Below are positions 4,424-23,092 of a stretch of 64,000 nucleotides of DNA, piece after piece. The position numbers and the translations under genes were made by a program. The first letter of the stretch is position 1; every line of letters starts with the position of its first letter. Source of the DNA: Halothermothrix sp. Lineage in GTDB: Bacteria; Bacillota; Halanaerobiia; DY22613. The notes under the pieces are model-generated. The model made no database searches. It saw nothing but the letters and a program-made list of their open reading frames with translations, and had not been told where the DNA came from. The stretch covers positions 6,739 to 70,738 of the forward strand of contig JAENYK010000013.1 of NCBI GenBank assembly GCA_016841825.1. Direction: 5' to 3'.

Positions 4424-5620
4424 GTGCGAAATAAAGAGATAAAGATATCTAGACCATTATACGCAACAGCGAAACTGACTCTTGGGAATTATGTTAAACA
4501 ATTATTTAATACGCAATATGTGGGCTCTGAACTCATTAACAAGCAAACTGGTTCCTATATTATCCTGGGAAATCATACTAATTTCTGGGACCCAGTTTTA
4601 GTAGCCTATGGAGTATCTGAGCATATTTATTTTGTCTCCTCTGACGAGTATTTTCGTAAGGGTATCCTAAAATTTCTCTTACCCTATGCAGGAGCAATTC
4701 CCAAAACTAAGTTCTTCTCAGATTCTGAGACAGTAAAAAACATTATTAAAGTCAGGAAAAAAGGTGGAATAATCGGAATATTTCCTGAAGGCAAGCGCAA
4801 TTGGGATGGAACAACACTTGAGATTCTATACCCTACAGCCAAATTAATTAAATCATTAAAGATTCCTGTTATTGTGACATTATTAAAAGGCGCTGCCCTC
4901 TCTTATCCCCGCTGGGCTAAAAAAAGCCGTAAAGGTAAGTTGATTGTTGAATATAAGATGGCTTTAGATCCAGATCAGATAGAAAATCTCTCAGTCGATG
5001 AGATTTATCAAGTGATTACTACTGAACTGACATATGACGAATATGACTGGCAAAAAGAACAGATGATTCCCTTTAAAGGTAAACTTCTGGCAGAGCAAAT
5101 GGAATTATTCCTCTTTACCTGCCCCCATTGTAAAACAATAGGCAGTATGCGTTCAACCGACGATCATTTCTACTGTCAAGAATGTGGTTATTCTACGAGC
5201 TATAACTTATACGGTTATCTAACAAAGGAATCAGACATCCTATATTTTGACAATCCCCGGGATTGGAACTATTGGCAGTTAGAATACCTGAATAATTTGA
5301 GTGAAGAATTGGACGATTCCACACCTCTGATCTCAGATGAAAAAGTTTCAATCTTTAAAGGACGGAGGCTTAGTCCACTAACGAGACAGAGCACAGGGCA
5401 GATTACTCTGTATTCTAAAGTCTTAGAGTTCACCAGTCGTCAGGGAGAACACCTCTCTTTTGTTTTAGAGAAGATTCAAGGGATGAACATTCAGTACAAT
5501 AATCAGTTTGAATTCTATTATAATAAATCTCTTTACCGATTTAGCTTTGAATTATCTCATATCTCAGCTTATAAATGGTCACAGGCGATTATGGCCTTAC
5601 AAAACAGGTCAAAAAACTAA
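4424..5620 (+). CDS. Lysophospholipid/1-acyl-glycerol-3-phosphate acyltransferase family protein with C-terminal zinc-ribbon region
   Basis: Acyltransferase blocks GNHTNFWDP (HX4D) and IFPEGKRN. CPHC...CQEC pair downstream. GTG start 7 nt after AAGGAGGA. Confidence 0.75.
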   Translation: MRNKEIKISRPLYATAKLTLGNYVKQLFNTQYVGSELINKQTGSYIILGNHTNFWDPVLVAYGVSEHIYFVSSDEYFRKGILKFLLPYAGAIPKTKFFSDSETVKNIIKVRKKGGIIGIFPEGKRNWDGTTLEILYPTAKLIKSLKIPVIVTLLKGAALSYPRWAKKSRKGKLIVEYKMALDPDQIENLSVDEIYQVITTELTYDEYDWQKEQMIPFKGKLLAEQMELFLFTCPHCKTIGSMRSTDDHFYCQECGYSTSYNLYGYLTKESDILYFDNPRDWNYWQLEYLNNLSEELDDSTPLISDEKVSIFKGRRLSPLTRQSTGQITLYSKVLEFTSRQGEHLSFVLEKIQGMNIQYNNQFEFYYNKSLYRFSFELSHISAYKWSQAIMALQNRSKN

Positions 5621-5637
5621 CGAAAGCGAGGACATCT

Positions 5638-7017
5638 ATGAATACTGATTGGTCTTTCTTTATTGATTTTGCCCTTTTATCACTCTTTCTGGGAACTGCC
5701 ACTTATTTGAAAAGAACTTTTTCAATCTTTCGCAAATACCTGATCCCGGATGCTATTATTGCAGGATTTATTGGACTGCTTCTCGGTCCGGAAGTTTTAA
5801 AAATTGTTCAGCTTAACCCCGATCGATTGGGTACTTTAATCTACCATTTGATGGCTATTGGTTTTATTGCACTATCTCTCAAAGATAGAAGACGTGAAAA
5901 AGGTAGAGATGTAGTCAATACAGGCATGTATATCGTTTCCACTTATCTAATTCAGGGAATTTTGGGATTTGGTATCTCTTTACTGCTGGCATATACCATT
6001 TATCCTGATCTCTTTCCAGCCTTTGGACTACTCTTACCTCTGGCATTTGGGCAAGGTCCTGGACAGGCTTTTGCCATTGGGACTCAATGGGAAGTTCACG
6101 GATTCCTTCATGGAGGCAATATCGGTCTTACCCTGGCTACCTTTGGTTACCTTTGGGCCAGTATCGGTGGCGTTATTTTGATGAACTATCTGATCAGACG
6201 TCGGAAAATGGAGGCATCATCTAAGACTGGATTTGCTGTTTCTAAGACAGAAGTAGTTGAATCCAATGAATTTCCACAGGGCGGATCTATTGATCATATT
6301 ACGATTCAACTCTTCTTGATCGGTATTATCTACCTTGTCACTTATGGAACACTTTTAGGATTAACCAAAATTGTTGAACCTCTGGGATCTTTTGGACAGA
6401 CTCTGGCAGGTCTTTTCTGGGGATTCCATTTTCTGATCGGTTCGGTATATGCTCTATTATTAAGAGTAATCTTTGACTTTTTCAAAAAGAAAAAAATAAT
6501 GGTTAATAATTATCCGAATAATTATCTTTTGGAAAGAATTTCTGGTGGTTCATTTGACTTTATGGTAACAGCTGCAATTACAGCTATCTCCGTCTCTATT
6601 GTCAAAGATTACATTTTACCGATCTTTTTTATCTCACTTCTGGGTGGAGTCGTAACCATTCTATTTACAATCTGGATCGCTAAAAGAATTTACAAACACC
6701 ATGTTCTGGAATACATTCTGGCTCTCTATGGAATGTTAACGGGTACTATCTCTACCGGGATGGCACTCCTTAGAGAAGTAGATCCCAACTTCAAGACACA
6801 GGTTGCAGAAAAGCTTGTTTTGGGAAGTGGCGTCGGATTACTCTTCGGTTTCCCTCTAATGATTATCTTAAATATTCCAATCTTCGGTTATATTAATAAC
6901 CAACCGATAATGTATCTGTACACTCTGTTAGCTTTAACAGCATATTTGGGAGCACTTATCTTAATGATGTGGTTAAACCGTCCCACAGCATTAAAGGTTA
7001 CACGACAAAAAAAATAA
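5638..7017 (+). CDS. Sodium/glutamate symporter (GltS/ESS family)-like membrane transporter
   Basis: About 459-aa polytopic protein. The N-terminus (DFALLSLFLGTATYLKR...LIPDAIIAGFIGLLLGPEVL) resembles GltS. I chose the ATG at 5638 (GAGGA RBS) over the track start 5575, which overlaps the upstream gene. Confidence 0.55.
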   Translation: MNTDWSFFIDFALLSLFLGTATYLKRTFSIFRKYLIPDAIIAGFIGLLLGPEVLKIVQLNPDRLGTLIYHLMAIGFIALSLKDRRREKGRDVVNTGMYIVSTYLIQGILGFGISLLLAYTIYPDLFPAFGLLLPLAFGQGPGQAFAIGTQWEVHGFLHGGNIGLTLATFGYLWASIGGVILMNYLIRRRKMEASSKTGFAVSKTEVVESNEFPQGGSIDHITIQLFLIGIIYLVTYGTLLGLTKIVEPLGSFGQTLAGLFWGFHFLIGSVYALLLRVIFDFFKKKKIMVNNYPNNYLLERISGGSFDFMVTAAITAISVSIVKDYILPIFFISLLGGVVTILFTIWIAKRIYKHHVLEYILALYGMLTGTISTGMALLREVDPNFKTQVAEKLVLGSGVGLLFGFPLMIILNIPIFGYINNQPIMYLYTLLALTAYLGALILMMWLNRPTALKVTRQKK

Positions 7018-7042
7018 CAGTTCCCATAATTTAACTGATAAA

Positions 7043-7080
7043 AGCCCCCTTGAGCCTGAATATCTCAAAGGGGCTTTTTT
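7043..7080 (+). terminator. Rho-independent terminator after the symporter gene
   Basis: GCCCCCTTGAG...CTCAAAGGGGC stem (10 of 11 pairs) followed by TTTTTT. Confidence 0.8.
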
Positions 7081-7257
7081 ACAAACAATTATTTCAATTG
7101 AATTAGTTGTATCGGCATTTAAAAAAAATACTATAAAAACCCTTTATTATATGTATAAGTTATCTTCATATATCTATCATAATTTCCACAATTTACCGTT
7201 AGACACTACTGAAAAGACCTCAGAATACTTAACTTCTAAGATCTTATTCGCTCTGAA

Positions 7258-8304
7258 CTAGACACCCTTAATGTTAGTTAGAGCCGCCAATAACCGCTTG
7301 TTTTCTTCTGAAGTACCTACACTGAAGCGGTAATAACCAGGCCAGTCTGGATAAGTTTTTACCTTAATTCCATAATTAACAAATCTCTCTCTCAACCAAC
7401 CTTCAGATCCTAATTCTTTACACCAGAAAAAGTTGGACTGACTGGTATATAGCTTTAGAAAAGAATGGTTTTTTAATAAAGAAGCTATCATCTCTCTCTG
7501 ACTTACTACCTCTTCAATTAACAAGCTATTAGTTGAACTAAATGCAGCTTCAGCTACCAGAAGCATAAAATTATTAAAATGAAATGGTAACTCCAAATCC
7601 CTAATACTATTAACCAACCAGGTAGGCCCAGCCATAAAACCAATCCTCACCCCAGCTAAACCCCAACCTTTAGACAAAGTTCGAGTGATTGCCAATCTAT
7701 CAGGATATTCCTGTAAAAGATTAACTAAACTCTGACCGGAAAAATCATAATATGCCTCATCAATAATTACCACTGTATTGGGTAACTGTTTAATTAATAA
7801 TTCAATCTTCTCTCTGTCAAAACAGTTACCTGTTGGGTTGTTTGGATATGCCAGAACGATTAAATCTGGTTTTTCCATCATAAAATTGTCCAGTGTAGCA
7901 TCAACTAACTCAAACTCAGTTGAAAGTCTGGCGGTACAGACCTGAACACCAGCCTGTCGAGCATAGATCGCATAACAGGGAAATCCAGGTTTAATAACAC
8001 CTAACTTCTTTCCACGAAAGACCAACATCATCCTAAATAATATATCATCTAATCCATTTCCCAAACAGACCCGTTCAACTGAACACCCTAAATAATCTGC
8101 TGCTAACCTTTCAATCTTTTGTACATCATCCAGAGTTGGATACCTATTTAATTCCAGTGTTGGTAGTCTCTCAATCAATTCTGGATAATCACTTATATAA
8201 GTTGGAAAAGGCATTTCATTTAGAGATATTCTAATCTCTTCCCCCCGATTAGATCTTAACCTTTGATCTCTCTTTTCAAAAGTCTGTAACTTCTTTGTCA
8301 GCAT
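7258..8304 (-). CDS. Class I/II PLP-dependent aminotransferase (histidinol-phosphate aminotransferase-like)
   Basis: YPNNPTGN and TLSKGWGLAGVRIGF (PLP lysine) motifs. ATG at 8304 preceded by AAAGGGGGGA; the track start 8388 would overlap the cupin gene. Confidence 0.75.
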   Translation of the reverse strand: MLTKKLQTFEKRDQRLRSNRGEEIRISLNEMPFPTYISDYPELIERLPTLELNRYPTLDDVQKIERLAADYLGCSVERVCLGNGLDDILFRMMLVFRGKKLGVIKPGFPCYAIYARQAGVQVCTARLSTEFELVDATLDNFMMEKPDLIVLAYPNNPTGNCFDREKIELLIKQLPNTVVIIDEAYYDFSGQSLVNLLQEYPDRLAITRTLSKGWGLAGVRIGFMAGPTWLVNSIRDLELPFHFNNFMLLVAEAAFSSTNSLLIEEVVSQREMIASLLKNHSFLKLYTSQSNFFWCKELGSEGWLRERFVNYGIKVKTYPDWPGYYRFSVGTSEENKRLLAALTNIKGV

Positions 8305-8790: not shown

Positions 8791-10443
8791 TTATTGATTA
8801 AAAAACACTGGATCTTCATTTTTTGAAACTATTACCTCAATTACTACAGTCCCTTGAGAATTTAAAGCCTGTTCCAGTCCCCGGGTAAACTCTTCAACTG
8901 TTCGAACCTTGATTCCCCTCGCACCCATTGATTCTGCCCAATCAGCAAAATCAATCTCTGGTATATCTGAAGCCACATACTGGTCTGCACACACTAAATG
9001 TTGATATGTCCTCACTCTGCCCAGTGAACTATTATTATAGATAACAAAGATTGTATCCAGTCCCAGATAACTAGAAACTGAAATCTCATTACCAGACATT
9101 AATGTTGAACCATCGCCAGTTATACAGATTACCTTGCGTTCCGGAGCTGCTAATTTCATCCCAATAGCTGCTCCTATAGCATACCCCATGGTACCAAGTC
9201 CAATATTTGTGAACAATCCCCCAGCATTTTTAGTATGGTAACATGTTAACACGTTAAGCCAATGATTTCCTGCGTCTGGAACGACAATCGCATCATTAGG
9301 AAGAATGTGATTTAACTGGAATATGGTTTTGGCCATGATTAAATTATCAGACTGAAGTCTATCCTGAAGATAATCAGCTAGCAGTCTTTTTCCCAATCTA
9401 ATTCTGTCACGACGTTCATTACTCACACTCATTTTCTGACAGAGTGCAGGCAACCAATACCGTAAATCTGCCTGGATACCTAAATCTATCGCGGTTCTGA
9501 GTCCAAGTTGATGATGATCAATATCAACCTGAATAGTATAAACCTCATGCAAAAGTCTTCTAACCTGATCAAAATAATAATCTGCCAAACTGGCTCCAAG
9601 AATTAAAACTGTATCTGGCTGATAATCAGATATTAATTTGATTATCTGATTATTTTGCCCAGGGCCAACATGTCCCCAGACATATTCATGAGTGGCCTGG
9701 ACTGCAGCCAATCCCTTGATCGAAGTAATTACAGGAGCAGAGAGTTGTTCCGCAAGTTGATGTAATTCATCCAGTTTACTGGATAAATAGAGGCCCCATC
9801 CTACAAAGAGTAATGGCCTTTTGGATTGAACTAAAATATCTCCTATCTGGTCCACATTTTGATCACAGCTTATGACTCTGCTAGACTGTAATCTTTTGAG
9901 ATAACAATCTTCAATCCCATTGGGATCTATCTCTTGTTCCTGAAGAGTTACAGGAATACTCAGATGAACTGGCCCCGGTCTACCAGATACAGCTAACCTC
10001 AAAGCTGATTCAAAAAGATGAACCCCTGCTTTGATATCAGTAATCTCATAAGATCCTTTGGTAATGGGTGCAAAGATAGCCTGGGGAGAGAAACCTCTAT
10101 CCAGAGGAAAACATTCCTGAAAACAACCTCTCCCAAAGGTTTCAGGATTAGCCTGACCTGTAATAGCTAATATGGGAATTGAATCTTTGTAAGCACCAGC
10201 AATACCTGTGTACATATTGGTCTGTCCGGGACCCATCGTTGCAAGAACGACCCCTGGTTTTCCGGTTATTCTGGCCCACCCATCAGCCATATAAACAGCC
10301 CCAGACTCATGCCTTGCCAAAATCACCCCGGGAGACTGATCAAATTTCTGCCATAATGGCATAACATAACTTCCCGGTACTCCGAAAACTACGTCATACT
10401 CTAATTCCTGTAACCGCATTTTGATATACTCAGCCAGATTCAA
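8791..10443 (-). CDS. Thiamine-diphosphate-dependent enzyme (acetolactate synthase large-subunit-like/2-oxoacid decarboxylase family)
   Basis: N-terminal VFGVPGS and the TPP-binding GDGSTLMSGNE...N motif. The ORF extends to 10461, but the TTG at 10443 follows AAAGGAGGG and gives a typical (M)NLAEYI N-terminus. Confidence 0.8.
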   Translation of the reverse strand: MNLAEYIKMRLQELEYDVVFGVPGSYVMPLWQKFDQSPGVILARHESGAVYMADGWARITGKPGVVLATMGPGQTNMYTGIAGAYKDSIPILAITGQANPETFGRGCFQECFPLDRGFSPQAIFAPITKGSYEITDIKAGVHLFESALRLAVSGRPGPVHLSIPVTLQEQEIDPNGIEDCYLKRLQSSRVISCDQNVDQIGDILVQSKRPLLFVGWGLYLSSKLDELHQLAEQLSAPVITSIKGLAAVQATHEYVWGHVGPGQNNQIIKLISDYQPDTVLILGASLADYYFDQVRRLLHEVYTIQVDIDHHQLGLRTAIDLGIQADLRYWLPALCQKMSVSNERRDRIRLGKRLLADYLQDRLQSDNLIMAKTIFQLNHILPNDAIVVPDAGNHWLNVLTCYHTKNAGGLFTNIGLGTMGYAIGAAIGMKLAAPERKVICITGDGSTLMSGNEISVSSYLGLDTIFVIYNNSSLGRVRTYQHLVCADQYVASDIPEIDFADWAESMGARGIKVRTVEEFTRGLEQALNSQGTVVIEVIVSKNEDPVFFNQ

Positions 10444-10693
10444 AATTATCCCTCCTTTCATCCCTCAACTAGAATTAAAGCTAAACAGAATGTTCATAAA
10501 CCTCAACTAGCAGACAGGAAATTAAAATATTTAAGATAAATAATGTCACTATATATTAATTCGCTATTTGTTATAATTTACCTTCTTTTATGTTTTATTC
10601 TTTTTCATTTTTTTGGTTTTTTCGCCAATAATCAAAGATAAATTCCATACTTCATCTTTACTTGTCGATTACTCTTAAAAAAATTCCATAAAG

Positions 10694-10726
10694 AAAAGGT
10701 TCAAAATTTACATTTTTGAACCTTTT
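10694..10726 (-). terminator. Hairpin terminator downstream of peptide gene P1
   Basis: 13-bp perfect stem AAAAGGTTCAAAA/TTTTGAACCTTTT, followed by CTTTAT on the minus strand. Confidence 0.5.
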
Positions 10727-10796
10727 CTCTGTATATATAAAATTATAAATGGTGTTAAAATACAACCACTAAGGAAGTAGGGTAGGAGAATCTAGA

Positions 10797-10889
10797 TTAT
10801 ACTGGACAACAATATGCTTTAATAGGTGGATTATCTATACTGATTCTATCGTAGGAATATTCTTCAAGATTCCACAGTTGATCTAACAT
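10797..10889 (-). CDS. Small precursor-like peptide P1 (30 aa): MLDQLWNLEEYSYDRISIDNPPIKAYCCPV
   Basis: Hand-translated. ATG 7 nt after GGAGGTGA. One of four paralogs next to radical SAM/SPASM genes. Below the ORF-track size cutoff. Confidence 0.75.
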   Translation of the reverse strand: MLDQLWNLEEYSYDRISIDNPPIKAYCCPV

Positions 10890-11070
10890 AATTTCACCTC
10901 CTAACAAAATTTATTATATTTCAGGATCAAGTTATCCTGTTAAACCCTGCTATTGAGAATTGAAACAGATAGTGGATGACGTCAACAATATTAAAATATG
11001 TAGCTATGCAGACTATATTTAATCAATAGTTACAGTTTTAAAAGAGAAAGCAGGGATAGGGCTCTTCACA

Positions 11071-11163
11071 TTATACTGGGCAGCAATAAATCTTTGCGGG
11101 TGGCTCTTCTGGATTAATGATCTCATAGGAGTATTGGTCCAGGTTCCAAAGTTTATCTAACAT
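11071..11163 (-). CDS. Small precursor-like peptide P2 (30 aa): MLDKLWNLDQYSYEIINPEEPPAKIYCCPV
   Basis: Hand-translated. GGAGGGAGGTGA RBS. Paralog of P1, P3 and P4, with synonymous codon differences in the conserved N-terminus. Confidence 0.75.
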   Translation of the reverse strand: MLDKLWNLDQYSYEIINPEEPPAKIYCCPV

Positions 11164-11179
11164 TGTCTCACCTCCCTCC

Positions 11180-11208
11180 AATATTTCGAAATTCTAATAG
11201 ACTTTCAA
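11180..11208 (-). promoter_or_regulatory. Candidate sigma-A promoter in front of P2
   Basis: Minus strand reads TTGAAA-17 nt-AATATT, ending about 15 nt before the P2 RBS. Confidence 0.3.
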
Positions 11209-11251
11209 TCAAAAACATCTGAACGCTCTCCTATCCCTACTCCAAAAATAA

Positions 11252-11349
11252 CAACCAACAAAAAGTTTGTTAGTATAGGCAAAAAACATCTATAGGTAAT
11301 CTTTTATCTGTATATGCAATTTGCCTATACAGTTACTTTTTGTTGGTTG
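11252..11349. repeat. 98-nt compound inverted repeat (15-bp and 11-bp perfect stems) between the rSAM gene and P2
   Basis: CAACCAACAAAAAGT (11252-11266) pairs with ACTTTTTGTTGGTTG (11335-11349). The nested GTATAGGCAAA (11273-11283) pairs with TTTGCCTATAC (11320-11330). Confidence 0.7.
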
Positions 11350-11355
11350 ACTTGC

Positions 11356-12402
11356 CTATTTTGAATTTATGTTCAGACCATTTTCGACCTCATATTTGAA
11401 TAAACATAACGGATTTTCATAAAAAGTACCTGTGAGGGAAACAGCCATTGATGAACATCCAGCTCTACAGAGATCATTATACTTACACTCTGCACAGAAG
11501 CCAGTCAATTTGTCCACTGTCCGCTGGCGATAGTGAGTAAATTTAGTAGGGTCATTCCAGATATCTGCAAAAGACCGTTCCCGAATATTACCTTCAACAC
11601 ATTCATCACAGCCGATTACTGATAGGCAACCTCGAATATTGCCACTGGCTTCAACACCTACAACTTGCCGACCTGCTGAACATCCGGTAAAAGGATGATC
11701 CCGCAAATAAGGCTCAAAAGAAGTAAAGTACCCAACATTATCCCCAGTAAGAATTTTAAAACCTGGTTCTTCCCGTCTAAATTTCGCGATATATTTAGCT
11801 AACTTATATATTCCTGCTACTCCCATGCTCAACTTTTCATTTTTAAAAGCATTACCCACATCTTCGACAATCTGAACTTGCCAGGCACGAATATCTAGGC
11901 TTTTAATAAATTCATAAATTTCGGGAATTTGATCAAGATTTACCGCTGAAACTGCAGTAATAACGGCAATATTCAAACCTTCTTTTTTGGCTAATTTTAA
12001 ATGCTCAACAGCACGGTTAAAAATATTAGGTACCCCTCTAAGATAATCATGGGTTTCACCCAGCCCGTCAATACTAATTCCAAGTTTTTTGATACCAGCA
12101 GCTTTCATTTTTTGAATATTCTTCTCATTCATTAATAAGCCATTGGTCAAAGGGGCGACAATAACGCCATTCTCACTCAATCGTTTACTTACCTGCTCCC
12201 AGTGTGGGCTTAAGAAAAACTCTCCTCCCATTAGGGTCAGATGATAACAACCTGCTTCACTCAATTGATCACATACATGTAACGCTTCATCTAAACTCAA
12301 CTCATTTTCCCGGCACTCACCAGACTGAGAACCACAATGCAGACATTTAGCATTACAGGCATTTGTCAGTTCCCAGGCAGCATAACGTGGGACATAATTC
12401 AT
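11356..12402 (-). CDS. Radical SAM/SPASM-domain peptide-modifying enzyme (PqqE-like architecture)
   Basis: WELTNACNAKCLHCG (CX3CX2C). C-terminal SPASM Cys pattern GCSAGRQVVGVEASGNIRGC...CAECKYNDLCRAGC. ATG at 12402 after AAAGGAGGAAA (track start is 12444). Confidence 0.85.
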   Translation of the reverse strand: MNYVPRYAAWELTNACNAKCLHCGSQSGECRENELSLDEALHVCDQLSEAGCYHLTLMGGEFFLSPHWEQVSKRLSENGVIVAPLTNGLLMNEKNIQKMKAAGIKKLGISIDGLGETHDYLRGVPNIFNRAVEHLKLAKKEGLNIAVITAVSAVNLDQIPEIYEFIKSLDIRAWQVQIVEDVGNAFKNEKLSMGVAGIYKLAKYIAKFRREEPGFKILTGDNVGYFTSFEPYLRDHPFTGCSAGRQVVGVEASGNIRGCLSVIGCDECVEGNIRERSFADIWNDPTKFTHYRQRTVDKLTGFCAECKYNDLCRAGCSSMAVSLTGTFYENPLCLFKYEVENGLNINSK

Positions 12403-12461
12403 ATATCTTTCCTCCTTTTTAAAAGAAGTGGAGAAGAGTTTCACTGATTTTTCATAGGTTA

Positions 12462-12554
12462 TTACATTTCAGCTGGTGCACAGTACACTTTAATTGGAGC
12501 TATTTCAAATTGATCCCAGGCATATTGTTCCAGATCCCAAAGTTTATCTAGCAT
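12462..12554 (-). CDS. Small precursor-like peptide P3 (30 aa): MLDKLWDLEQYAWDQFEIAPIKVYCAPAEM
   Basis: Hand-translated. GGGAGGTGA RBS. Paralog of P1, P2 and P4. Confidence 0.75.
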   Translation of the reverse strand: MLDKLWDLEQYAWDQFEIAPIKVYCAPAEM

Positions 12555-12591
12555 AGTTTCACCTCCCAGATATATCTTTGATTAATCTTTT

Positions 12592-12678
12592 TTAGAAATC
12601 AGGTGTACAGTATAATTTTATAGGTGGAATTAATACCTCCCATGAATACTCTTCTAAGTTCCAAAGATTATCTAACAT
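12592..12678 (-). CDS. Small precursor-like peptide P4 (28 aa): MLDNLWNLEEYSWEVLIPPIKLYCTPDF
   Basis: Hand-translated. AAGGTGGTGA RBS. Paralog of P1-P3. Confidence 0.75.
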   Translation of the reverse strand: MLDNLWNLEEYSWEVLIPPIKLYCTPDF

Positions 12679-12752
12679 ACTATCACCACCTTTCACACAA
12701 AATGTAGCCAACAGTCTTATCAAATCTCTAGTACCCTTCTCCACTTCAAAAT

Positions 12753-14066
12753 TTAGGCCAGCTTACTTTTTGACAGATAGTATAATTCGATAATTCCATC
12801 CAGATCTGTTGCCTCCAAAGAACATGGATTTTTACCCACAATTCGATTATACCTACAACCACCCTGGCACATTGGTAAAAACTTGCAATGGGCACATTTT
12901 TCATCATCACCCGGTGTATAAGTTAACCATTTGGCCATGGTGTAGCTATCAATGATAATATTACCATCTTCTAATAAGTGACCCACAGTCTTACCATTTT
13001 CGAACTCTACTGTACATCTATATAGATCACCAGAAGGATGAACGATAAAATAGTTCTTTGAACCACTATTACAATGATGGTCTCGAATCTTCAGTGCCGG
13101 AATAAACACTTCAAAACCTTCTTGAAGACTATGAGTATATAAATCTTTCATTATTTGATAACTTTTAATTCGATTATTGGTTATCTCTTCTTCGATTCCT
13201 TTGTTCCCCTCTGGATCGGAAAAGATATCTTTATAGGCGAGCATCAGTTGAGGAGTGCGATATTTTTGGGGAATCATTTTAAGAAATTTAGGTATGGATG
13301 AATAATTTTCTTTATCCACATTGATTCTCAGAGCCACCTGGGCCTTAGTTCTGTCCAAAAGTCTAAAAACATTTTTAAGAATAACATCAAAAGATTCACT
13401 TCCATCTTTTAAAGGGCGGTATCTATTGTGATACTCCGGTGGACCATCAATCGTAATTTGAAAATTAGTCAGACGTAGATCATCAACTTTACTCAAGATC
13501 TCATCAGTAAGAAGATAGCCATTAGTGGTAATATCACTGTGGAAGAAGCAACCAGATTGAGCACAGGCAGCTTTGGCATGACTATTGATATTTTCAACAA
13601 TAGAAAAGTCCATCAGAGGTTCTCCGCCAAACCAGGTCAGCTGTAATCTGCGTGCCATTCTGGAAATCTTATTAATCCAGCTGATAAGTCCCTTCTGCAG
13701 TTCTTCACTCATATAACCAGTATCTCTGGATTCATAGCAGTATTTACAGGCAAAATTACAGTCTAATGTAGGCATGATCACCAGATTGTAAAACAAACTG
13801 TCATACCTGGAAGAAAGATTTCTAATGCGAATCATATCTAATTCATTAACATCCTCCGGAATGAGATACATCTCTTGAACCAACTCTTTTTTTAATTTTT
13901 GCTGATCTTCTGCAAGATCAGTGTTACAATGATCCATGACATAGATGTATTTTTCGAAGTCTGTGTCAGGTACTTCGATCATCTTTCCTGTGAAAAAATT
14001 AAACAAGACCTGTTTGCCGTTCTGAAGACTGGCCCAATGGTTGTAAAAAGATGGTTTTAGTTTCAT
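12753..14066 (-). CDS. Radical SAM/SPASM peptide maturase (anaerobic sulfatase-maturase/sactipeptide-ranthipeptide synthase-like)
   Basis: MPTLDCNFACKYCYE (CX3CX2C). C-terminal HCNSGSKNYFIVHPSGDLYRC...CAHCKFLPMCQGGC SPASM pattern. The N-terminal roughly 90 aa resemble a peptide-binding (RRE-like) extension. Confidence 0.85.
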   Translation of the reverse strand: MKLKPSFYNHWASLQNGKQVLFNFFTGKMIEVPDTDFEKYIYVMDHCNTDLAEDQQKLKKELVQEMYLIPEDVNELDMIRIRNLSSRYDSLFYNLVIMPTLDCNFACKYCYESRDTGYMSEELQKGLISWINKISRMARRLQLTWFGGEPLMDFSIVENINSHAKAACAQSGCFFHSDITTNGYLLTDEILSKVDDLRLTNFQITIDGPPEYHNRYRPLKDGSESFDVILKNVFRLLDRTKAQVALRINVDKENYSSIPKFLKMIPQKYRTPQLMLAYKDIFSDPEGNKGIEEEITNNRIKSYQIMKDLYTHSLQEGFEVFIPALKIRDHHCNSGSKNYFIVHPSGDLYRCTVEFENGKTVGHLLEDGNIIIDSYTMAKWLTYTPGDDEKCAHCKFLPMCQGGCRYNRIVGKNPCSLEATDLDGIIELYYLSKSKLA

Positions 14067-14200
14067 AGTTACCTCCTTAAGATTAAGTCTTTGCTCTAAT
14101 TAGCTATTGGTAAAATGGTTATAAAATTTTTTAAATCCAAAGTTATCAGTCTTTGTTTTATAATTAAATATTGACTAAAATTTGTTATTTTACATAGTTA

Positions 14201-14229
14201 ATTATATCATATCCTACATTTACATGCAA
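14201..14229 (-). promoter_or_regulatory. Candidate promoter of RiPP locus 1 (extended -10)
   Basis: Minus strand reads TTGCAT-17 nt (ending in TGA)-TATAAT, i.e. TGATATAAT, about 130 nt upstream of the rSAM start at 14066. Confidence 0.4.
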
Positions 14230-14424: not shown

Positions 14425-14991
14425 ATGGAGGAGATGAACTCTATGAACCAGGATAGGTGGACTGCAGTCAAAGACAATGACTCCACAGCAGACGGTACAT
14501 TTTACTATGGTGTCAAAACTACCGCAATATTTTGTCTACCATCTTGCAAATCTAAATTACCCTTAAAAAAGAATGTTCTCTTCTTCGATTCTTATGAACA
14601 GGCTATCCATAGTGGTTTTCGGCCCTGTAAAAGATGTCGGCCAGATTTATATCCCGATAATACCCCTAATCAACAACTTCTGACCAGAATCAAAGATTTT
14701 TTAGATGAAAACTATACTCTCCCCCAATGCGTTAATGGATTGACAGAACGTTTTGGAATAAGTAGTTCCCATCTTGTACGAATTTTTAAGAATAAATTTG
14801 GCTTAACTCCAAATGAACTTGTTCGAACTAATAGGGTTAAATTAGCAGAACGACTGCTTTTGTCTTCGCAACTCAAAACTATTGATATTGCTTTACGTTG
14901 TGGTTTTTCAAGCTACACAACTTTCTTTACTAATTTCAAAAAAACAACTGGAATGACGCCAGGGAAATATCGAAAAGGAGGCAATTTATGA
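14425..14991 (+). CDS. Ada-type Zn-binding domain / AraC-family HTH transcriptional regulator
   Basis: N-terminal FYYGVKTTAIFCLPSCKSK...FRPCKRCRP (Ada Cys4 Zn site). C-terminal AraC-type double HTH (GISSSHLVRIFK..., CGFSSYTTFFTNFKK). The true start may be an internal ATG at 14434 or 14443, after GGAGGAG. Confidence 0.8.
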   Translation: MEEMNSMNQDRWTAVKDNDSTADGTFYYGVKTTAIFCLPSCKSKLPLKKNVLFFDSYEQAIHSGFRPCKRCRPDLYPDNTPNQQLLTRIKDFLDENYTLPQCVNGLTERFGISSSHLVRIFKNKFGLTPNELVRTNRVKLAERLLLSSQLKTIDIALRCGFSSYTTFFTNFKKTTGMTPGKYRKGGNL

Positions 14992-15641
14992 AAAAACTAT
15001 TTGCGCCGGGATGTGCCTTAACTATCTATAAGCCATATCTTGCAGAAAAGTTACACCAATTACTAGATGCCAGGCTGGGGAACATCGAAAGGCTCGATAT
15101 CTGTTGTAGAAATCACCCTTTATTGGAAGACGGTACTGAGGTAATTAATATCTGTCCAGGCTGTGATCGACGATATCGGGAGAATTACACTAACTCCTCT
15201 ACCGTTTCTCTCTGGGAAGTTCTCGCAGCTAATGATTTTCTCCCACTTCCCGATTATCAGGGGCAAAAGATGTCCATTATTGATGCCTGTCCAACCCGTA
15301 GTCAAGTAAGGGTTCATAAGGCTATCAGAATATTACTTGACAAAATGAACATCGAGTTGATGGAACCAGAAAAAACAGGTACAAAAAGCTCTTGCTGTGG
15401 TGATAGTTTTTGGAGTGTACTACCCACTGAACAGGTCAAAGAAAAAATGATTGAACGGGCAGCAGAAATGCCAGTAGATGATGTAGTAGTTTACTGCGTA
15501 TCCTGCAGTAAATCTCTATTCATTGGTGGGAAAAAACCTCATTACATGATTGACCTTTTATTTGGAGAAGAGACCATTCCTAAAACCTATGAACCTGACG
15601 AATGGCACCGGGAGGTTGATGAATTTATTGCTGCCCACTAA
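14988..15641 (+). CDS. Cysteine-rich CCG-domain protein (HdrB/GlpC/LutA-like Fe-S protein)
   Basis: Two Cys-rich halves: PGC...DICC...CPGC and DACP...SCCGD...YCVSC (CCG...CxxC signature). ATGA overlap with the regulator stop. Confidence 0.55.
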   Translation: MKKLFAPGCALTIYKPYLAEKLHQLLDARLGNIERLDICCRNHPLLEDGTEVINICPGCDRRYRENYTNSSTVSLWEVLAANDFLPLPDYQGQKMSIIDACPTRSQVRVHKAIRILLDKMNIELMEPEKTGTKSSCCGDSFWSVLPTEQVKEKMIERAAEMPVDDVVVYCVSCSKSLFIGGKKPHYMIDLLFGEETIPKTYEPDEWHREVDEFIAAH

Positions 15642-15740: not shown

Positions 15741-17204
15741 CTATTCAGATAATTCTGAGTTACCAATTCGATTTTTTAACATTAACCCCAGAACCAGGCG
15801 TTGAATCTTCTCTCTTTCAAAAATCAGTTTGTTAAAAGCATAGTCTAGAACCGTCCGATTTCTGGCACAACGATTTGTTTTATTTAACTTAATCCGATAA
15901 TCCCCTTCTTGACCATAATGTAAGACTGGACAGATACCACAGAAAGGCTTATAAGCGCATGAATCACAATAATACCCTTCCAAAATGGATCTCTTAATCA
16001 GATTTTTTGATTGCTCTCTCCGGATCAAATCGAGATAATTATCCCTAAATACATTTCCCACGATAAAATCTTCCATAACTCTAGCTTCATCACAACAATA
16101 AATGTCACCATTGTAGTTATAAACAATCTGTCCACGAATCATTCCACAGGGACTTCCCAAATCCAGAAAACCTGTGTCTGTTCCATGAAGTATATTCTTT
16201 AAGATTAAATGAAGATATCGATCCACAATGACTGTGCCTTCGTCTAACAATTCGAACATGTAGTTTACAGATTTTGTCCAGAATTCTACAAATTCTTCCA
16301 TAGTATAACCTATTTCATCCCAGACATCTACTGCATATCCCAAATAATCCAATGGTTTAACCTGTAAAGTTCGTTGACCCCATTTTACATATTCATCAAC
16401 AATCTCTTTCCAATATGGCAATGAGTATCTGGTAGTAACCATCAATAAGCCTACATGAATTCCTCTTTCATTACATCGTCTGACCCATTTGGTAACCTGA
16501 TCATAAGTTCCGGAATTACTATGGACATACAGACGATTTTTATCATGTACCTCTTTTGGACCATCTAATGAACTGGTTAGCATAAATTTATCTTTTCTGG
16601 CGGCTAAATAATCCAGAAATTCTTCATCCATCGCCAATAAATTTGTTACCAAAGCAAGTTTATATTCTTTGTTGTACTGCTGACTTAACTTTTCTGCATA
16701 CTCAAAGGTCAACTTGACCATTGGTTTATTTAATAGTGGCTCCCCACCTTGAAACTCAATCAATATCTTCTTCTTTGGTGATTGAAAGATAAACTCTAAT
16801 GTACGCAGCAAAGTCCGTTCATCCATGTCATATTGATTACCTTCTGTAATTGCAGCCGCTTCTGAATGGCAGTAAACACAGCGTAAATTACACCGTATTG
16901 TTGGAACAATAATGTGCAGAGCTGCACCAGTTTGAATATGTTTATATCTTTTATAATATCCTTCAATAATCTGTTCATAATTATCAACTGTGATGATAAT
17001 TCCCCGATTAATCAGATCTGGATACAGTTGTGAATCTATCTTTCCTGCCAAAAAATTATCATATGCCTCCACACTCAACGAAACCCAGGTTCCGTGATCG
17101 GTTGTCAATAAAACTTTGTCTTTTATCCTTTTTGGACGATAGAAATTTACTATATGACCGCCATTTTCCTCTAATTTTTTTTGAATATAATCCATCTCCA
17201 TCAT
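15741..17204 (-). CDS. Radical SAM/SPASM peptide maturase, paralog of 23093..24541 (HxsB-like)
   Basis: VPTIRCNLRCVYCHS. SPASM tail GSPCGMIRGQIVYNYNGDIYCCDE...CDSCAYKPFCGICPV. About two-thirds identical by eye to the 482-aa paralog. Confidence 0.85.
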   Translation of the reverse strand: MMEMDYIQKKLEENGGHIVNFYRPKRIKDKVLLTTDHGTWVSLSVEAYDNFLAGKIDSQLYPDLINRGIIITVDNYEQIIEGYYKRYKHIQTGAALHIIVPTIRCNLRCVYCHSEAAAITEGNQYDMDERTLLRTLEFIFQSPKKKILIEFQGGEPLLNKPMVKLTFEYAEKLSQQYNKEYKLALVTNLLAMDEEFLDYLAARKDKFMLTSSLDGPKEVHDKNRLYVHSNSGTYDQVTKWVRRCNERGIHVGLLMVTTRYSLPYWKEIVDEYVKWGQRTLQVKPLDYLGYAVDVWDEIGYTMEEFVEFWTKSVNYMFELLDEGTVIVDRYLHLILKNILHGTDTGFLDLGSPCGMIRGQIVYNYNGDIYCCDEARVMEDFIVGNVFRDNYLDLIRREQSKNLIKRSILEGYYCDSCAYKPFCGICPVLHYGQEGDYRIKLNKTNRCARNRTVLDYAFNKLIFEREKIQRLVLGLMLKNRIGNSELSE

Positions 17205-17221
17205 CTGTTATTCCCCCAAAA

Positions 17222-18130
17222 TTATTCATTTGTTAAACGCATACATGGATTTTCCCAAGTTATAACACTCTCTTCACACTCACTCATCGACTTTCGAAAA
17301 TCTGCTAACTGTCTATTATCCTGGATAATCTGCTTAAAATTATTGTTCAAAAGATTTCCCAGCGTGAACTTATCCTGATCAAAATATGGGCAAGGTAACA
17401 GCGTGCCGTCACATCTAACAACAAAAGTCTCCTTACCGGCATTACATTTTAGGTTCCCAACCTGACCATTTTCGATAAATTCACGAAAAGAATGTAACCA
17501 ATAAAAACTACAATCATACACGAAACGGATATACTTTTTATAATGATCAATAACCTTAAACAATTGGTAATAGTCAACAAAATCTAAAGCTTCCTGTCTG
17601 TACCATTTTAGATTTTTACTCATTTTGGGTGGTATAAGATATATGAGAGTGAAACCATTCTGGGCAAGAAAAAGAAATGAGTCAATCATATCCTGCAAAA
17701 AAGTTTTTCCCGTGATAATGTTAACACCTATCTTGATCTGCAGATTATTCTCCTTAGCATAGGTACAAAGGTCACTATATCTCTGAACTTCGTTGATGCA
17801 GATAGTAGAGCCCAAACTGATATAAACTTCATTCAAACCAGAATTATTTAACTCAACTAATCGCTCTTTATCTAATAAAATTCCGTTAGTTGCCAACTGA
17901 GTCTTAAAACCCTTAAGATGAGCCTGCTGAATTATCTGGTTCAAATCATCTCGTAAAAGTGGCTCACCTCCTGAAAGTTTTAAATACCGGAAATCATTAT
18001 CTTGTAAATCAAGCAGAATCTGATCAATCTCTGCAACGCTCATCAATCTTCGAGGTTTATCATGCTCATAACAGAAAGTACAGTTGGAATTACATTCCTG
18101 ATTTACCTTCAGATTAACACCTTTACCCAT
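17222..18130 (-). CDS. Radical SAM enzyme with short SPASM/twitch-type C-terminal Cys cluster
   Basis: VNQECNSNCTFCYE (CX3CX2C), GGEPLL, and C-terminal CNAGKETFVVRCDGTLLPCPYF. Confidence 0.8.
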   Translation of the reverse strand: MGKGVNLKVNQECNSNCTFCYEHDKPRRLMSVAEIDQILLDLQDNDFRYLKLSGGEPLLRDDLNQIIQQAHLKGFKTQLATNGILLDKERLVELNNSGLNEVYISLGSTICINEVQRYSDLCTYAKENNLQIKIGVNIITGKTFLQDMIDSFLFLAQNGFTLIYLIPPKMSKNLKWYRQEALDFVDYYQLFKVIDHYKKYIRFVYDCSFYWLHSFREFIENGQVGNLKCNAGKETFVVRCDGTLLPCPYFDQDKFTLGNLLNNNFKQIIQDNRQLADFRKSMSECEESVITWENPCMRLTNE

Positions 18131-19365
18131 TAAACCTCACTCTTTTCATCTTTTTTTATGATAATTGTCTTGGGATTTATCAAATAATTATTTGCAATTT
18201 TTTGTAATTCAGCATCAGTTATTTCTGCATACTGATCCAAAACCGTTTCAAAAGGAATTATCTGATTAGTCAAAAGTTCTTCAATACCAAAAACACTGGC
18301 CAGAGATAATGTTGTCTCAAATTTTCGATATAAACTGCCTGCGTATTGTGTTTTGACAAATTCCAGTTCTTCGCTGGAGATTAATTCACTCCTCAATCTG
18401 ATTAACTCATGATTAATTACATCTTCTACCTGATCAATCATCTCAGGAGAAGATTTAGTATAGATCAGAAAAATACCTGTATCTTCATATGGTAAATGTT
18501 TAGCTTCAACAGAATATACCAATCTCTCATCTTCCCGAAGACGCTTATATAAACGTGAGTAAAAACCTTCACCTAACAGTTGAGCAAATGTTTTAAAATA
18601 TGGTTGAAGCGAGCTCTTCAGTCCAGTAACGGGAAATGCTATAAACAGATGGGCTAAAGATAGATTGCGAGAAATAATAATTTTTTCCCGCTTTACCTCT
18701 TCTTGCGACAGATTTTCTACTTTTAAATCTTCCGACTTCTTCTGAAAGTGACTAAAATAGTTATCCAAAAATCCAGTAAACTCTTCTTCTAAAATATCAC
18801 CACAACAGGAGATTACTATATTTTTATAGTTAAAATACTTGTTATAGTGTTCAATCAAGTGTTCAGGACAAAACTGATTAACCGTTTGGACATACCCACG
18901 AATTGGATTCCGCAATGGATGTTCATTCCAATAATATAACGAAAAAAGATCCCACATCGCTCCCGGTGAATTCTGATGTGTCAAAATCTCCTGTAAGATG
19001 ATTGTTTTTTCCGATTCCAAAAGATCTGCAGCAAGGTTGAATTGAAAGATAGTCTCTAAAACCAATGGCAGTACTGTATAGAGATACTCTTTTCGGATCA
19101 CAAAATAAGTAGCCAGATAATCGCGAGTTGTAACAGCATTGAACACCCCACCATATTTTTCTACTGCATAGAAAACTTGTTGGTTTACCTGTCGATTTTC
19201 AAATAACATATGCTCTAAGACATGGGTTATCCCAAATCTGTCTCCATCATTTTGACTACCTACTTTAATGAATATTTTTACAGCACACAATCCAGTATTC
19301 TCTTTATGTGTACAGATCGTCCTGATACCATTAGATAGATTATTTTTCTTAATCATCATTCTCAT
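18130..19365 (-). CDS. M16-family zinc peptidase (catalytic HxxEH present, no signal peptide)
   Basis: GITHVLEHMLFEN inverzincin motif. 1-nt and 4-nt overlaps with neighbouring genes. Confidence 0.8.
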   Translation of the reverse strand: MRMMIKKNNLSNGIRTICTHKENTGLCAVKIFIKVGSQNDGDRFGITHVLEHMLFENRQVNQQVFYAVEKYGGVFNAVTTRDYLATYFVIRKEYLYTVLPLVLETIFQFNLAADLLESEKTIILQEILTHQNSPGAMWDLFSLYYWNEHPLRNPIRGYVQTVNQFCPEHLIEHYNKYFNYKNIVISCCGDILEEEFTGFLDNYFSHFQKKSEDLKVENLSQEEVKREKIIISRNLSLAHLFIAFPVTGLKSSLQPYFKTFAQLLGEGFYSRLYKRLREDERLVYSVEAKHLPYEDTGIFLIYTKSSPEMIDQVEDVINHELIRLRSELISSEELEFVKTQYAGSLYRKFETTLSLASVFGIEELLTNQIIPFETVLDQYAEITDAELQKIANNYLINPKTIIIKKDEKSEV

Positions 19366-20687
19366 TTTTCGAACTCCTTAGACATAGTTTGAATTTCTAT
19401 CTTTTCCTTATCTGAATAGCTGCCGACATAAGTAATAACCAGATTTGCTAATAGTTTTCTAGCAATTCTCTGATATAGCCCAACTTCCTGCATTTCTGGA
19501 CCATCCAGAAAAGTTAGTAGGCCTTCAGGAGAAAAACCTAAGAGCAAACCTTCACCAACGTAATCTGCATATCTTTCTTTATCCTCCAAAGAAAGATAAA
19601 AATTAGTTAAAAATCTTCTAACTACCTGCTCAAAATCATGATCATAGATATCCGAATTCAAAAGGTCGATCATCTCCTGCAAAATAGTCTTACCCACCAG
19701 ATATCCCTGATCACTAACAACCTTAATCTCCAGGGTGTTTAACTCACCAACTTCTATCTGTACATTAACCGTATAAGCTAGCCCCAGCTCTCGACGTAAT
19801 ACTTCATATAAACGTCGTGCTAAATATTCCTGAATGATATGTAGTCCAACCAGTTCTACTGTAGATTTAGCCTGATAGTTACTATAGGCTGCAACAAAAC
19901 TCTGATCAGAATCTATAAACTCAACGCTCTGATCAATTGTTGGAATAGCAATCTGCAGTTTCTCAAACTTATCTCTCTGGTCAACTTTAATTCCCGCTAA
20001 AGCTGCTTCAACTTCGGATTTCTCAAAATTACCAAAGATGACGATTGTTAATTTCCCGGTAAGGATCAGTTGTTGATAATATTCCTGAAGAGTTGGAAAA
20101 TCTATCTGCATAATTGATACAGGTGTACCTGCTGCCGGACTACTTAATGGATGAGATCTATAATAATTTTGACGAATTCTGTGCAGTATCTTCTCTTCTT
20201 CACCTATGCTTGATAGTTTAGTATATACCTGTTTCTGCTCTTCCAGGAACTCTGATTCTGTCAACTTATTAGCAAAGATGATTTCTTTTAAAAGTTGTCC
20301 TACTAACTGCAAATCTTCCTTATAAAATTTAATACAAAGTGCCCCATAAGTATAGTTTGCCAGATTGTTAAATTGAATTATATGTCTGTTTTTTAAGTCG
20401 CCAATCTCTGTATTGGTATACTTTTGGGTATCTCCCTTTAACAATGTCCGCATTAATAAATAATCTACACCCCCGGGATACTTTTGCTGATCTTTTGAGA
20501 TTTCATAATAGAGATTCATCACCGCAAAATTTTCAAATGAATCCTGTATCTGAATCACTTTAATCCCATCTACCTGATATTCTAAAAAACCATCGTTCGG
20601 TTCTGCTGCAAACCCATTGAGGGATAACGTTATTAATAAAAAAATAGTAATAGCTAAATTACGAATTTCCCTTTTCATAGTAATCAT
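19362..20687 (-). CDS. M16-family peptidase-like protein lacking HxxEH (non-catalytic partner), secreted
   Basis: N-terminal signal peptide (LLITLSLNGFAAEP). M16-like length and layout, but GGVDYLLMRTLLKG sits where HxxEH would be. Confidence 0.6.
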   Translation of the reverse strand: MITMKREIRNLAITIFLLITLSLNGFAAEPNDGFLEYQVDGIKVIQIQDSFENFAVMNLYYEISKDQQKYPGGVDYLLMRTLLKGDTQKYTNTEIGDLKNRHIIQFNNLANYTYGALCIKFYKEDLQLVGQLLKEIIFANKLTESEFLEEQKQVYTKLSSIGEEEKILHRIRQNYYRSHPLSSPAAGTPVSIMQIDFPTLQEYYQQLILTGKLTIVIFGNFEKSEVEAALAGIKVDQRDKFEKLQIAIPTIDQSVEFIDSDQSFVAAYSNYQAKSTVELVGLHIIQEYLARRLYEVLRRELGLAYTVNVQIEVGELNTLEIKVVSDQGYLVGKTILQEMIDLLNSDIYDHDFEQVVRRFLTNFYLSLEDKERYADYVGEGLLLGFSPEGLLTFLDGPEMQEVGLYQRIARKLLANLVITYVGSYSDKEKIEIQTMSKEFEK

Positions 20688-20701
20688 TCTCTCCCCCCTT
20701 T

Positions 20702-23078: not shown

Positions 23079-23092
23079 GGTATCACCTCACT

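Follow-up and report, generated by a model that had tools for sequence, protein, structure and literature searches.

We describe a locus of the kind that makes peptides built by ribosomes and modified after translation (RiPPs), found on contig JAENYK010000013.1 of Halothermothrix sp. within a 64,000-nt stretch of DNA, hereafter the window. The locus occupies window positions 10690-14229 and holds four short peptide genes, P1 to P4, and two radical S-adenosylmethionine (rSAM) enzymes of the SPASM type, here called rSAM-A and rSAM-B. Coordinates are those of the window, on the minus strand unless stated, and the ends of open reading frames (ORFs) include the stop codon. In minus-strand order the elements are:

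12753-14066, minus: rSAM-A, a 437-aa radical SAM/SPASM protein with an N-terminal domain resembling a RiPP recognition element (RRE); Pfam Radical_SAM and Fer4_12
12592-12678, minus: P4, putative precursor MLDNLWNLEEYSWEVLIPPIKLYCTPDF; GGTGG 7 nt before the ATG; 65.8 bits with the peptide hidden Markov model (HMM)
12462-12554, minus: P3, putative precursor MLDKLWDLEQYAWDQFEIAPIKVYCAPAEM; GGAGG 7 nt before the ATG; directly upstream of rSAM-B
11356-12402, minus: rSAM-B, a 348-aa radical SAM/SPASM protein without an RRE; Pfam Radical_SAM and SPASM
11253-11349, minus: stable RNA hairpin followed by a U-run in the rSAM-B/P2 spacer, from a shuffled-fold test
11071-11163, minus: P2, putative precursor MLDKLWNLDQYSYEIINPEEPPAKIYCCPV; GGAGG 7 nt before the ATG; HMM 68.6 bits
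10797-10889, minus: P1, putative precursor MLDQLWNLEEYSYDRISIDNPPIKAYCCPV; GGAGG 7 nt before the ATG; HMM 71.6 bits
about 10690-10730, minus: hairpin resembling an intrinsic terminator, 17 bp with a U-rich tail, closing the locus

An initial annotation of this DNA had hand-translated four 28-30-aa peptide genes behind strong ribosome-binding sites, in the order rSAM(437)-P4-P3-rSAM(348)-P2-P1-terminator, and had called the whole a RiPP-type locus with two rSAM/SPASM maturases. The order is confirmed, the four paralogous ORFs have exactly the positions and sequences given then, and the RiPP-type reading is supported by what follows. The closing hairpin (dG -19.4 kcal/mol, z -4.55, 0 of 200 shuffles as good) was not detected by a simple consensus terminator scan. 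We take rSAM-B to start at the ATG at 12402, which has a GGAGG site, the mechanical ORF list running on to a GTG; its CxxxCxxC motif begins at residue 16. The closest named relatives of both enzymes are in metagenome-assembled genomes (MAGs) of Halanaerobiales.

The spacer between rSAM-B and P2 folds far better than its shuffled versions (fold of 11180-11360: dG -53.6 kcal/mol against a shuffle mean of -30.9, z -6.2, 0 of 200 as good); the fold of the P2-P1 spacer is unremarkable (z -0.8). This hairpin is missing from one related locus (L003), where the peptide abuts rSAM-B. It is possibly an internal terminator, an attenuator or an element stabilising the mRNA, and may divide transcription, with the enzyme genes on one side of it and P2 and P1 on the other. 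An Rfam search of the locus gave no credible match.

Conservation of the peptides and their maturases

The four small ORFs are real genes under purifying selection. Over the leader and core codons of eight paralogues and orthologues, synonymous differences are saturated (pS 0.85) and nonsynonymous ones few (pN 0.15; ratio 0.18), and for P4 against its orthologue in L003 (L003a) the values are pN 0.06 and pS 0.91; the initial argument from synonymous codons is thereby borne out in numbers. A profile of the four sequences found 13 matches at E <=1e-3 among 1.84 billion representative proteins, 11 of them peptides of 29-38 aa that align end to end (E 1e-13 to 1e-4) with the consensus MLDxLWNL(E/D)xYSW(E/D)...P(I/V)KxYC(C/x)P. 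Loci reached by a separate route, through homologues of rSAM-A (P0002, P0003, P0004, P0010), each carry such peptides too, one or two per locus, placed between the rSAM pair or following it. Because of these profile matches and the presence of peptides in every syntenic locus fetched, their conservation is far beyond chance.

From this conservation we infer that P1-P4 are precursor peptides. Residues 1-14 (MLDxLWNLEEYSWE) would form the leader, predicted helical at residues 3-14 when the peptide is modelled alone with AlphaFold2 (AF2), at low confidence (pLDDT, the predicted local distance difference test, 58), and the C-terminal P-(I/A)-K-x-Y-C-x-P the core. The window peptides hold one or two Cys in their 28-30 aa. 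In the K-x-Y-C-x-P branch at large K, Y, C and P are invariant and many copies have a second Cys, while the paralogues, up to four per locus, are divergent, hypervariable around the Tyr and variable in their tails. The genes had been described as unannotated, which holds for Pfam and NCBIfam, where P1-P4 match no model, but not for P3: in the copy of the locus in MAG GCA_018436825.1 it alone is called as a gene (30 aa), and it is in the protein collection searched, as P0266. A literature search for the leader pentapeptides returned nothing relevant.

The initial annotation had proposed looking for co-occurrence of the peptides with both enzymes in related genomes. The three occur together in six of six related loci recovered (window/L001, L002, L003, L004/L005, L100/L101). 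The top 11 rSAM-B clusters all pair with rSAM-A clusters; seven pairs were matched by the identical size of the longest contig and the others verified directly. Since searches that made no use of the enzymes also place K-x-Y-C-x-P peptides on contigs of these sizes, rSAM-A, rSAM-B and the Y-C peptide are a conserved unit. The rSAM-A clade is small, with about 11 clusters at >=57% identity, then a tier at 37-47%, then generic relatives at about 33%. A profile scan of genome contigs with the rSAM-A clade alignment, in which the motifs picked were generic to rSAMs, gave, among the matches listed (at least 600), only relatives of <=33% identity, with no W-N-L peptides near them save chance pattern matches.

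The peptides are not the stand-alone family that they had seemed to be: P1-P4 are the K-x-Y-C-x-P branch of a wider family tied to rSAM-B and defined by a W-N-L leader, M-x-x-(x)-W-N-L-x-x-x-(Y/F/L)-x-(Y/W/F)-(E/D/..). Relatives of rSAM-B (about 70 clusters at >=46% identity) are many more than those of rSAM-A, and rSAM-B homologues adjoin W-N-L peptides in 11 loci. The adjacency of P3 and rSAM-B is the ancestral peptide-enzyme arrangement of the family. Five loci have rSAM-B and lack rSAM-A:

L087: three peptide-enzyme pairs; rSAM-B only
L088: two peptide-enzyme pairs; rSAM-B only
L089: four tandem peptides and one enzyme; rSAM-B only
L090: four peptides around one enzyme; rSAM-B only
L091: a B12-rSAM, one peptide and rSAM-B; no rSAM-A

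Cores in these rSAM-B-only loci are unrelated to each other: (R/L/D)-Y-M-P-(V/I)-(E/D), C-Y-G-x-x-P-P and (K/T)-P-Y-S-A-A-T. Lys is not conserved across this wider family; Tyr alone is. It lies 17-20 residues after the leader Trp in 32 of 32 W-N-L peptides when the alignment is anchored on Tyr, an imposed rule whose register gives the tighter spacing, and the next residue is C, M, G or S. Because peptides with the same leader and unrelated cores always stand beside rSAM-B homologues, we conclude that the entire W-N-L family has in rSAM-B its cognate and ancestral maturase, and that accessory rSAMs, whether the SPASM protein rSAM-A or a B12-rSAM, were added in particular branches. The leader is likely the handle for rSAM-B and the Tyr its site.

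One MAG, GCA_018434525.1, has at least three W-N-L/rSAM-B loci (L089, L090, L091), with C-Y-G, Y-M-P and P-Y-S-A-A-T cores. The B12-binding rSAM that precedes the W-N-L locus in L091 has 494 aa and best matches BchE and RiPP C-methyltransferase types. This suggests that accessory rSAMs are recruited in a modular way. Adjoining its W-N-L locus, L091 has another small system at 4714-7963 (minus), made up of a 57-aa Cys-rich peptide ending in AGIAGYRYGS, a protein of 131 aa, an rSAM of 485 aa and a C11 peptidase.

Members of the W-N-L family come from Logan, ENA and NCBI assemblies and none from JGI. When JGI metagenomes were scanned for the leader as a degenerate pattern of about 44 bits, two matches came up (L098, L099), in homologous 484-aa low-complexity ORFs (Ala/Pro/Lys-rich) from two unrelated metagenomes. 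Since they are out of frame inside the 484-aa ORF, both are coincidence.

Lineages of the two maturases

The NCBIfam models that best match rSAM-B are TIGR03913 ('GDL motif peptide-associated maturase'; 249.6 bits, cut-off 591.75) and TIGR04103 ('nif11-class peptide radical SAM maturase 3'; 235.2 bits, cut-off 725), both below cut-off and 57-70 bits higher than the next family (178 bits). Models of cross-linking enzymes give 112 (WgkB), 92 (StsB) and 79 bits (AlbA), and those of cofactor enzymes 119 (MftC, cut-off 265) and 96.5 bits (PqqE, cut-off 381). By tblastn against annotated plasmids, rSAM-B is 33-36% identical (E 1e-58 to 1e-67) to GDL-type, nif11-maturase-3 and Agathobacter enzymes; below those classes identity falls to <=29% (E 1e-33 or worse). 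Neighbour-joining bootstraps give 191/200 for the W-N-L clade, 195/200 for its Y-C sub-clade and 156/200 (78%) for a splicease-type superclade that takes in the W-N-L, Agathobacter, nif11-3, GDL and Tropicibacter enzymes and more distant homologues, with TIGR04133, TIGR04053, NirJ and MftC outside. These comparisons place rSAM-B in the splicease lineage, a homology that applies at the level of the lineage and not of an equivalog. No curated model claims the W-N-L clade, no solved structure is close to rSAM-B, and the ORF list of the locus has no Y-like ORF.

For rSAM-A the full-length NCBIfam matches, which are to enzymes that mature Cys-bearing peptides, are again all below cut-off: Clo7bot 252 bits (cut-off 600), the TIGR04463 Cys-rich-peptide maturase 234 (525), CefB 209, then PapB 112 (340), the SCIFF maturase 109 (425) and QhpD. 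Its best sequence match in the PDB is CteB (5WGG, 80.5 bits). In the AF2 model (pLDDT 90.6) the N-terminal domain (residues 3-87) has four short strands together with three helices and precedes the rSAM and SPASM domains, and the best Foldseek matches of this model, which take in that domain, are again CteB (5WHY/5WGG, about 450 columns, template-modelling score 0.68). Judged by sequence and predicted fold, rSAM-A appears to be an RRE-bearing rSAM/SPASM protein of the CteB/PapB/AlbA type, though it stays below every equivalog cut-off. It is found only where Cys follows the Tyr, in six of six such loci against none of the five rSAM-B-only loci. The most economical interpretation is that rSAM-A forms a thioether with that Cys as donor.

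A Logan contig sampled from the 37-47% identity tier of rSAM-A relatives (L006) has, at 1247-5760 and 9337-10290, a tandem series of more than 12 small ORFs rich in Cys, one of which begins MKVLISPKSVNTGIVTPQCGSNSVCNDPC. The array surrounds an ABC exporter and three rSAM-A paralogues, for which identity is 40-47%, and its precursors are of a different, Cys-rich family.

Proposed chemistry and its alternatives

We favour, at a probability of about one half, the reading that this is a RiPP system of the spliceotide lineage whose X-Y-C site departs from the canonical one and which has gained a further rSAM acting on Cys, its chemistry being taken from homology. P1-P4 would be precursors made of the helical leader (1-14) and a C-terminal core. 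As it has no RRE, rSAM-B probably binds the leader helix directly, like the binary spliceases, and rSAM-A would engage it through its RRE. The single conserved Tyr, 17-20 residues past the leader Trp, would be the residue on which rSAM-B acts, most likely by excision of a tyramine equivalent, as expected from its homology to PlpX-type and GDL-type enzymes; the mass change would be -135.07 Da. Placement in the splicease clade thus makes a -135 Da backbone excision at Tyr, and not only -2 Da steps, the signature to expect. The association of rSAM-A with the branch in which Cys comes right after Tyr is observed; in that branch it most likely uses the invariant Cys as thioether sulfur donor, at -2 Da per link. 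Leader removal and export would fall to unlinked proteases and exporters, none being encoded among the immediate neighbours. By analogy, and speculatively, the product would be a short constrained ketoamide peptide with a warhead of the protease-inhibitor type.

Several observations weigh against this spliceotide-type reading. An X-Y-G site is absent from all four window peptides and from about 20 K-x-Y-C-x-P homologues, all of which have Y-C, so the chemistry there may differ. The C-Y-G cores of L089 hold a Cys, yet that locus has no rSAM-A. MAFFT left to itself aligns the P-(I/V/L)-(K/E/D) motif, and the Tyr is then not in a common column. The identity of rSAM-B to annotated splicease-class enzymes is 33-36%, with scores far below both curated cut-offs, and SPASM enzymes at such a distance often differ in reaction. 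Finally, published mining and the characterised splicease substrates described in the accessible papers use YG (PMC10849128, PMC11414181, PMC11626197).

A rather unlikely alternative, near to what the initial annotation had in mind, is that Cys, Tyr, Lys and Trp become joined through the action of both rSAMs by cross-links of -2 Da (thioether, C-C/C-O), rSAM-B linking Tyr to a neighbouring residue, for example, and rSAM-A making a Cys thioether; this would be a new macrocyclic class with no excision. The thioether fits the CteB-like rSAM-A. The invariance of K, Y, C and P in the K-x-Y-C-x-P branch also suits such cross-linking, as do the scores of rSAM-B against WgkB, StsB and AlbA, the 33-36% identity just mentioned, and the non-Gly residue after Tyr, which leaves canonical splicing unproven. 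As an account of rSAM-B it fares less well, for the enzyme falls in the splicease clade (78% bootstrap) and not with generic cross-linkers, whose families lie 140-170 bits below the two splicease-class families. Lys varies across the family, so the reaction that rSAM-B carried out ancestrally cannot have been a fixed link of the Lys-Tyr or Trp-X kind. The conserved Trp, put forward at the outset as a cross-link partner, is a leader residue shared by branches with unrelated cores; because it lies in the leader, it is more likely a recognition residue.

We give less credence again to another Tyr-directed reaction of rSAM-B, derived from a splicease ancestor and making W-N-L a new reaction class. 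It could be a three-residue cyclophane (Tyr ring to C-beta of residue +2), a modification of Tyr C-beta or a Tyr-Cys linkage. The W-N-L clade is distinct (191/200), long stems separate it from the GDL and nif11 enzymes, no curated model claims it, and its cores are mostly Y-M-P, Y-C-x-P or Y-S-A and not Y-G. On the other hand, X-Y-G is kept with the same leader type in L089 (C-Y-G) and in Agathobacter (M-Y-G), arrays of DUF1843 substrates mix Y-G, Y-M and Y-A copies, and cyclophane synthase models are not among the best 25 matches of rSAM-B. Far less probable than either of these is that the peptides are precursors of a redox cofactor or signal (PQQ- or mycofactocin-like) or unmodified regulatory small ORFs. 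The weaker similarity of rSAM-B to MftC and PqqE and the lack of a protease or exporter conserved in cis would agree with such roles. Yet the Tyr is internal and not C-terminal, no MftB/PqqD chaperone or partner dehydrogenase is in the locus, and up to four divergent paralogues per locus, hypervariable near the Tyr, are what RiPP diversification typically yields, unlike a cofactor; the pN/pS of 0.18 and the strict linkage to maturases speak against regulatory ORFs.

Possible, though tentative, is a chemistry of the K-x-Y-C-x-P peptides that has not yet been described, in one of two versions. If tyramine splicing takes place at Tyr-Cys, an alpha-ketoamide would come to lie beside a thiol, which could be captured spontaneously (hemithioketal or thiomorpholinone) or by an rSAM-A thioether, giving a hybrid 'spliceo-ranthipeptide' scaffold. 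In the other version the W-N-L clade of rSAM-B would have switched from excision to a new Tyr-centred reaction. Under either, anaerobic Bacillota would possess, in the W-N-L family with its YC, YM, YS and YG cores, a compact platform for backbone-edited peptides that is made up of two genes and uses precursors of about 30 aa.

Were rSAM-B to splice at Tyr-Cys, the recognised sequence space of the reaction would widen, nature would offer a case of splicing joined to thioether formation by an rSAM on one peptide of about 15 residues, and a 14-residue leader with a 348-aa RRE-free enzyme would make a portable system of unusually small size. Should it not splice, just as much would be learnt, for the prediction of rSAM function, from a clade that descends from spliceases and has new chemistry at Tyr.

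Across the loci compared, the triad has no constant companion among proteases or transporters: ABC transporter genes occur with an S8 peptidase in L002 and L003, a C11 peptidase occurs in L004, and L100 and the window have none. The initial statement that the locus encodes no protease or exporter stands for the immediate neighbours, which are a thiamine pyrophosphate (TPP) enzyme, an Ada/AraC regulator and a CCG-domain protein; further out it needs amending, as M16 and HExxH proteases occur 4-12 kb upstream in a separate, large RiPP-type cluster (15741-28572, minus). A divergent gene pair, which flanks the locus in L001 too, separates that cluster from the peptide locus, and we set the cluster apart as lying beyond it. 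The Ada-Zn/AraC regulator could control either RiPP cluster. The genes concerned are:

14425-15641, plus: divergent pair of an Ada-Zn/AraC-family regulator (188 aa) and a CCG cysteine-rich domain protein (217 aa)
15741-17204, minus: HxsB-type rSAM maturase; NCBIfam 387.8 bits, cut-off 370
17222-18130, minus: small SPASM rSAM of the HxsB cluster
18130-22054, minus: three M16-family peptidase-like genes of the HxsB cluster
22038-23078, minus: HxsC/HxsC4-like rSAM of the HxsB cluster
23093-24541, minus: HxsB-type rSAM maturase; NCBIfam 390.2 bits, cut-off 370
24933-26180, minus: HExxH intramembrane metalloprotease of the daptide type; 127.8 bits, below the cut-off of 300

Relation to known systems

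Spliceases are among the few enzymes that edit the backbone of ribosomal peptides; they install beta-amino-alpha-ketoamide warheads and are used in protein engineering. Splicing leaves a mass signature of -135.06 Da and its products inhibit proteases (PMC11626197). In the Plp system the splice tag is PIRP(L/M)YGLPI (PMC10533398) and PlpX is of the rSAM/SPASM class IPR026482 (PMC11002830). At a Nostoc maturase-3 locus the Nif11 precursor ends in GGRGSIALYGLPPELF (IALYGLPPELF), and downstream of the enzyme, where PlpY would stand, is a 71-aa ORF. We take TIGR04103 to be the same as IPR026482, and the Nostoc locus is in keeping with this. Binary spliceases dispense with the Y protein, and the leader helix serves as activator (PMC11414181). 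Mining of the family relied on the frequency of the YG motif, according to a review (PMC10849128); Y-C, Y-M and Y-S branches would be invisible to an approach keyed on Y-G.

The spliceotide systems of cyanobacteria (PlpX/PlpY/PlpA, type I) are of the same rSAM/SPASM lineage as rSAM-B, one of whose two best models is TIGR04103. They share with the window a single target Tyr in a Pro-rich core with a basic residue upstream. Set against PPIK-x-YC-x-P here, the Plp tag has the same succession of basic residue, hydrophobic X, Tyr, small residue and, at +3, Pro. The binary spliceotides of Rheinheimera (RhaX/RhaA, RcsX/RasX) have a two-part layout with a helical leader and neither an RRE nor a Y protein (PMC11414181), which the window locus, its leader helix predicted at low confidence, would resemble. 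Sister loci of the window, L089 with C-Y-G and Agathobacter with M-Y-G, keep the X-Y-G site. The differences are that precursors here have 28-30 aa with a 14-residue W-N-L leader, where theirs have Nif11/NHLP or longer leaders; that Cys and not Gly follows the Tyr; that a second, CteB-like rSAM is present; and that rSAM-B reaches 235 bits against the TIGR04103 cut-off of 725, tyramine excision being proposed here from homology.

The GDL systems (DUF1843/DUF1842; Azospirillum, Burkholderia, Aureibacter) supply the top model of rSAM-B, TIGR03913, at 35-36% identity. Like the window locus they have substrate genes, one to three of them, directly upstream of the enzyme, and a basic residue and Pro before the Tyr. 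Their Tyr is near the N-terminus and is followed by a helical GDL domain of about 50 aa, their enzymes carry an extra C-terminal 130-170 aa or so that rSAM-B does not have, they occur in Proteobacteria and Bacteroidota, and they have no second rSAM. DUF1843 substrates read from the DNA include PIRMLYGG, IKPYGV, RPMYMAT, VLYAAG, PMYAAS and QPYGAG. Within single arrays the residue after Tyr varies among G, A and M (L093, 3040-3755: LYG, PYG, MYM; L095, 2162-2875: LYA, MYA, PYG), which indicates that variation after the Tyr is tolerated within one chemistry.

On the Agathobacter rectalis plasmid NZ_CP143948.1 (L094, about 3860-3970) an unannotated 35-aa ORF, MFNLEELSLEFVKISELKTSKNLFGPVMYGTGVRM (MFNLEELSLEF...VMYGTGVRM), lies just upstream of WP_015515522.1 ('radical SAM protein'), with a major facilitator superfamily (MFS) transporter alongside. 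It is likely a spliceotide-type precursor in a human-gut Lachnospiraceae strain. Its short length, acidic (F/W)-N-L-E-E leader and one Tyr recall the window peptides, and its enzyme, which likewise lacks an RRE, shares with rSAM-B its NCBIfam profile and 36% identity. It differs in its M-Y-G site, in a spacing from leader to Tyr of 27 against 17-20, in having no rSAM-A and in the exporter gene adjacent.

Among ranthipeptides, CteB of thermocellin shares with rSAM-A the full architecture of RRE, rSAM and SPASM, and the presence of rSAM-A is tied to the core Cys. The substrates of CteB, PapB (freyrasin) and the SCIFF enzymes have Cys-rich or CX3D-repeat cores, whereas one Cys is invariant here; rSAM-A, unlike the enzymes of ranthipeptide systems, is always beside a splicease-lineage enzyme, and is below the PapB and SCIFF cut-offs.

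Membership of several other classes was considered and rejected. The peptides have neither the signature of six Cys in about 45 aa nor Clo7bot repeats, and rSAM-A is below the cut-offs of the SCIFF, Clo7bot and Cys-rich families. They likewise have no GDL domain or Pfam match, rSAM-B scoring 249.6 against the 591.75 bits required for the GDL-motif family. For triceptides (three-residue cyclophanes), the YhhB model gives rSAM-A 58 bits (cut-off 445) and is not among the best 25 for rSAM-B. For mycofactocin and PQQ, the Tyr is internal, there is no chaperone ORF, and rSAM-B is below the MftC and PqqE cut-offs and outside MftC and NirJ in the tree.

In the searchable literature we found no mention of TIGR04103 or TIGR03913, and the pairing of rSAM-A with rSAM-B on a Tyr-Cys target motif had no match in the models and papers searchable. 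Part of the wider W-N-L family, especially its Y-G members, may already be catalogued in the survey of Scott et al. 2022. The splicease lineage was already known; what sets this locus apart is the non-canonical Tyr-Cys site, the ultra-short precursor and the added CteB-like enzyme.

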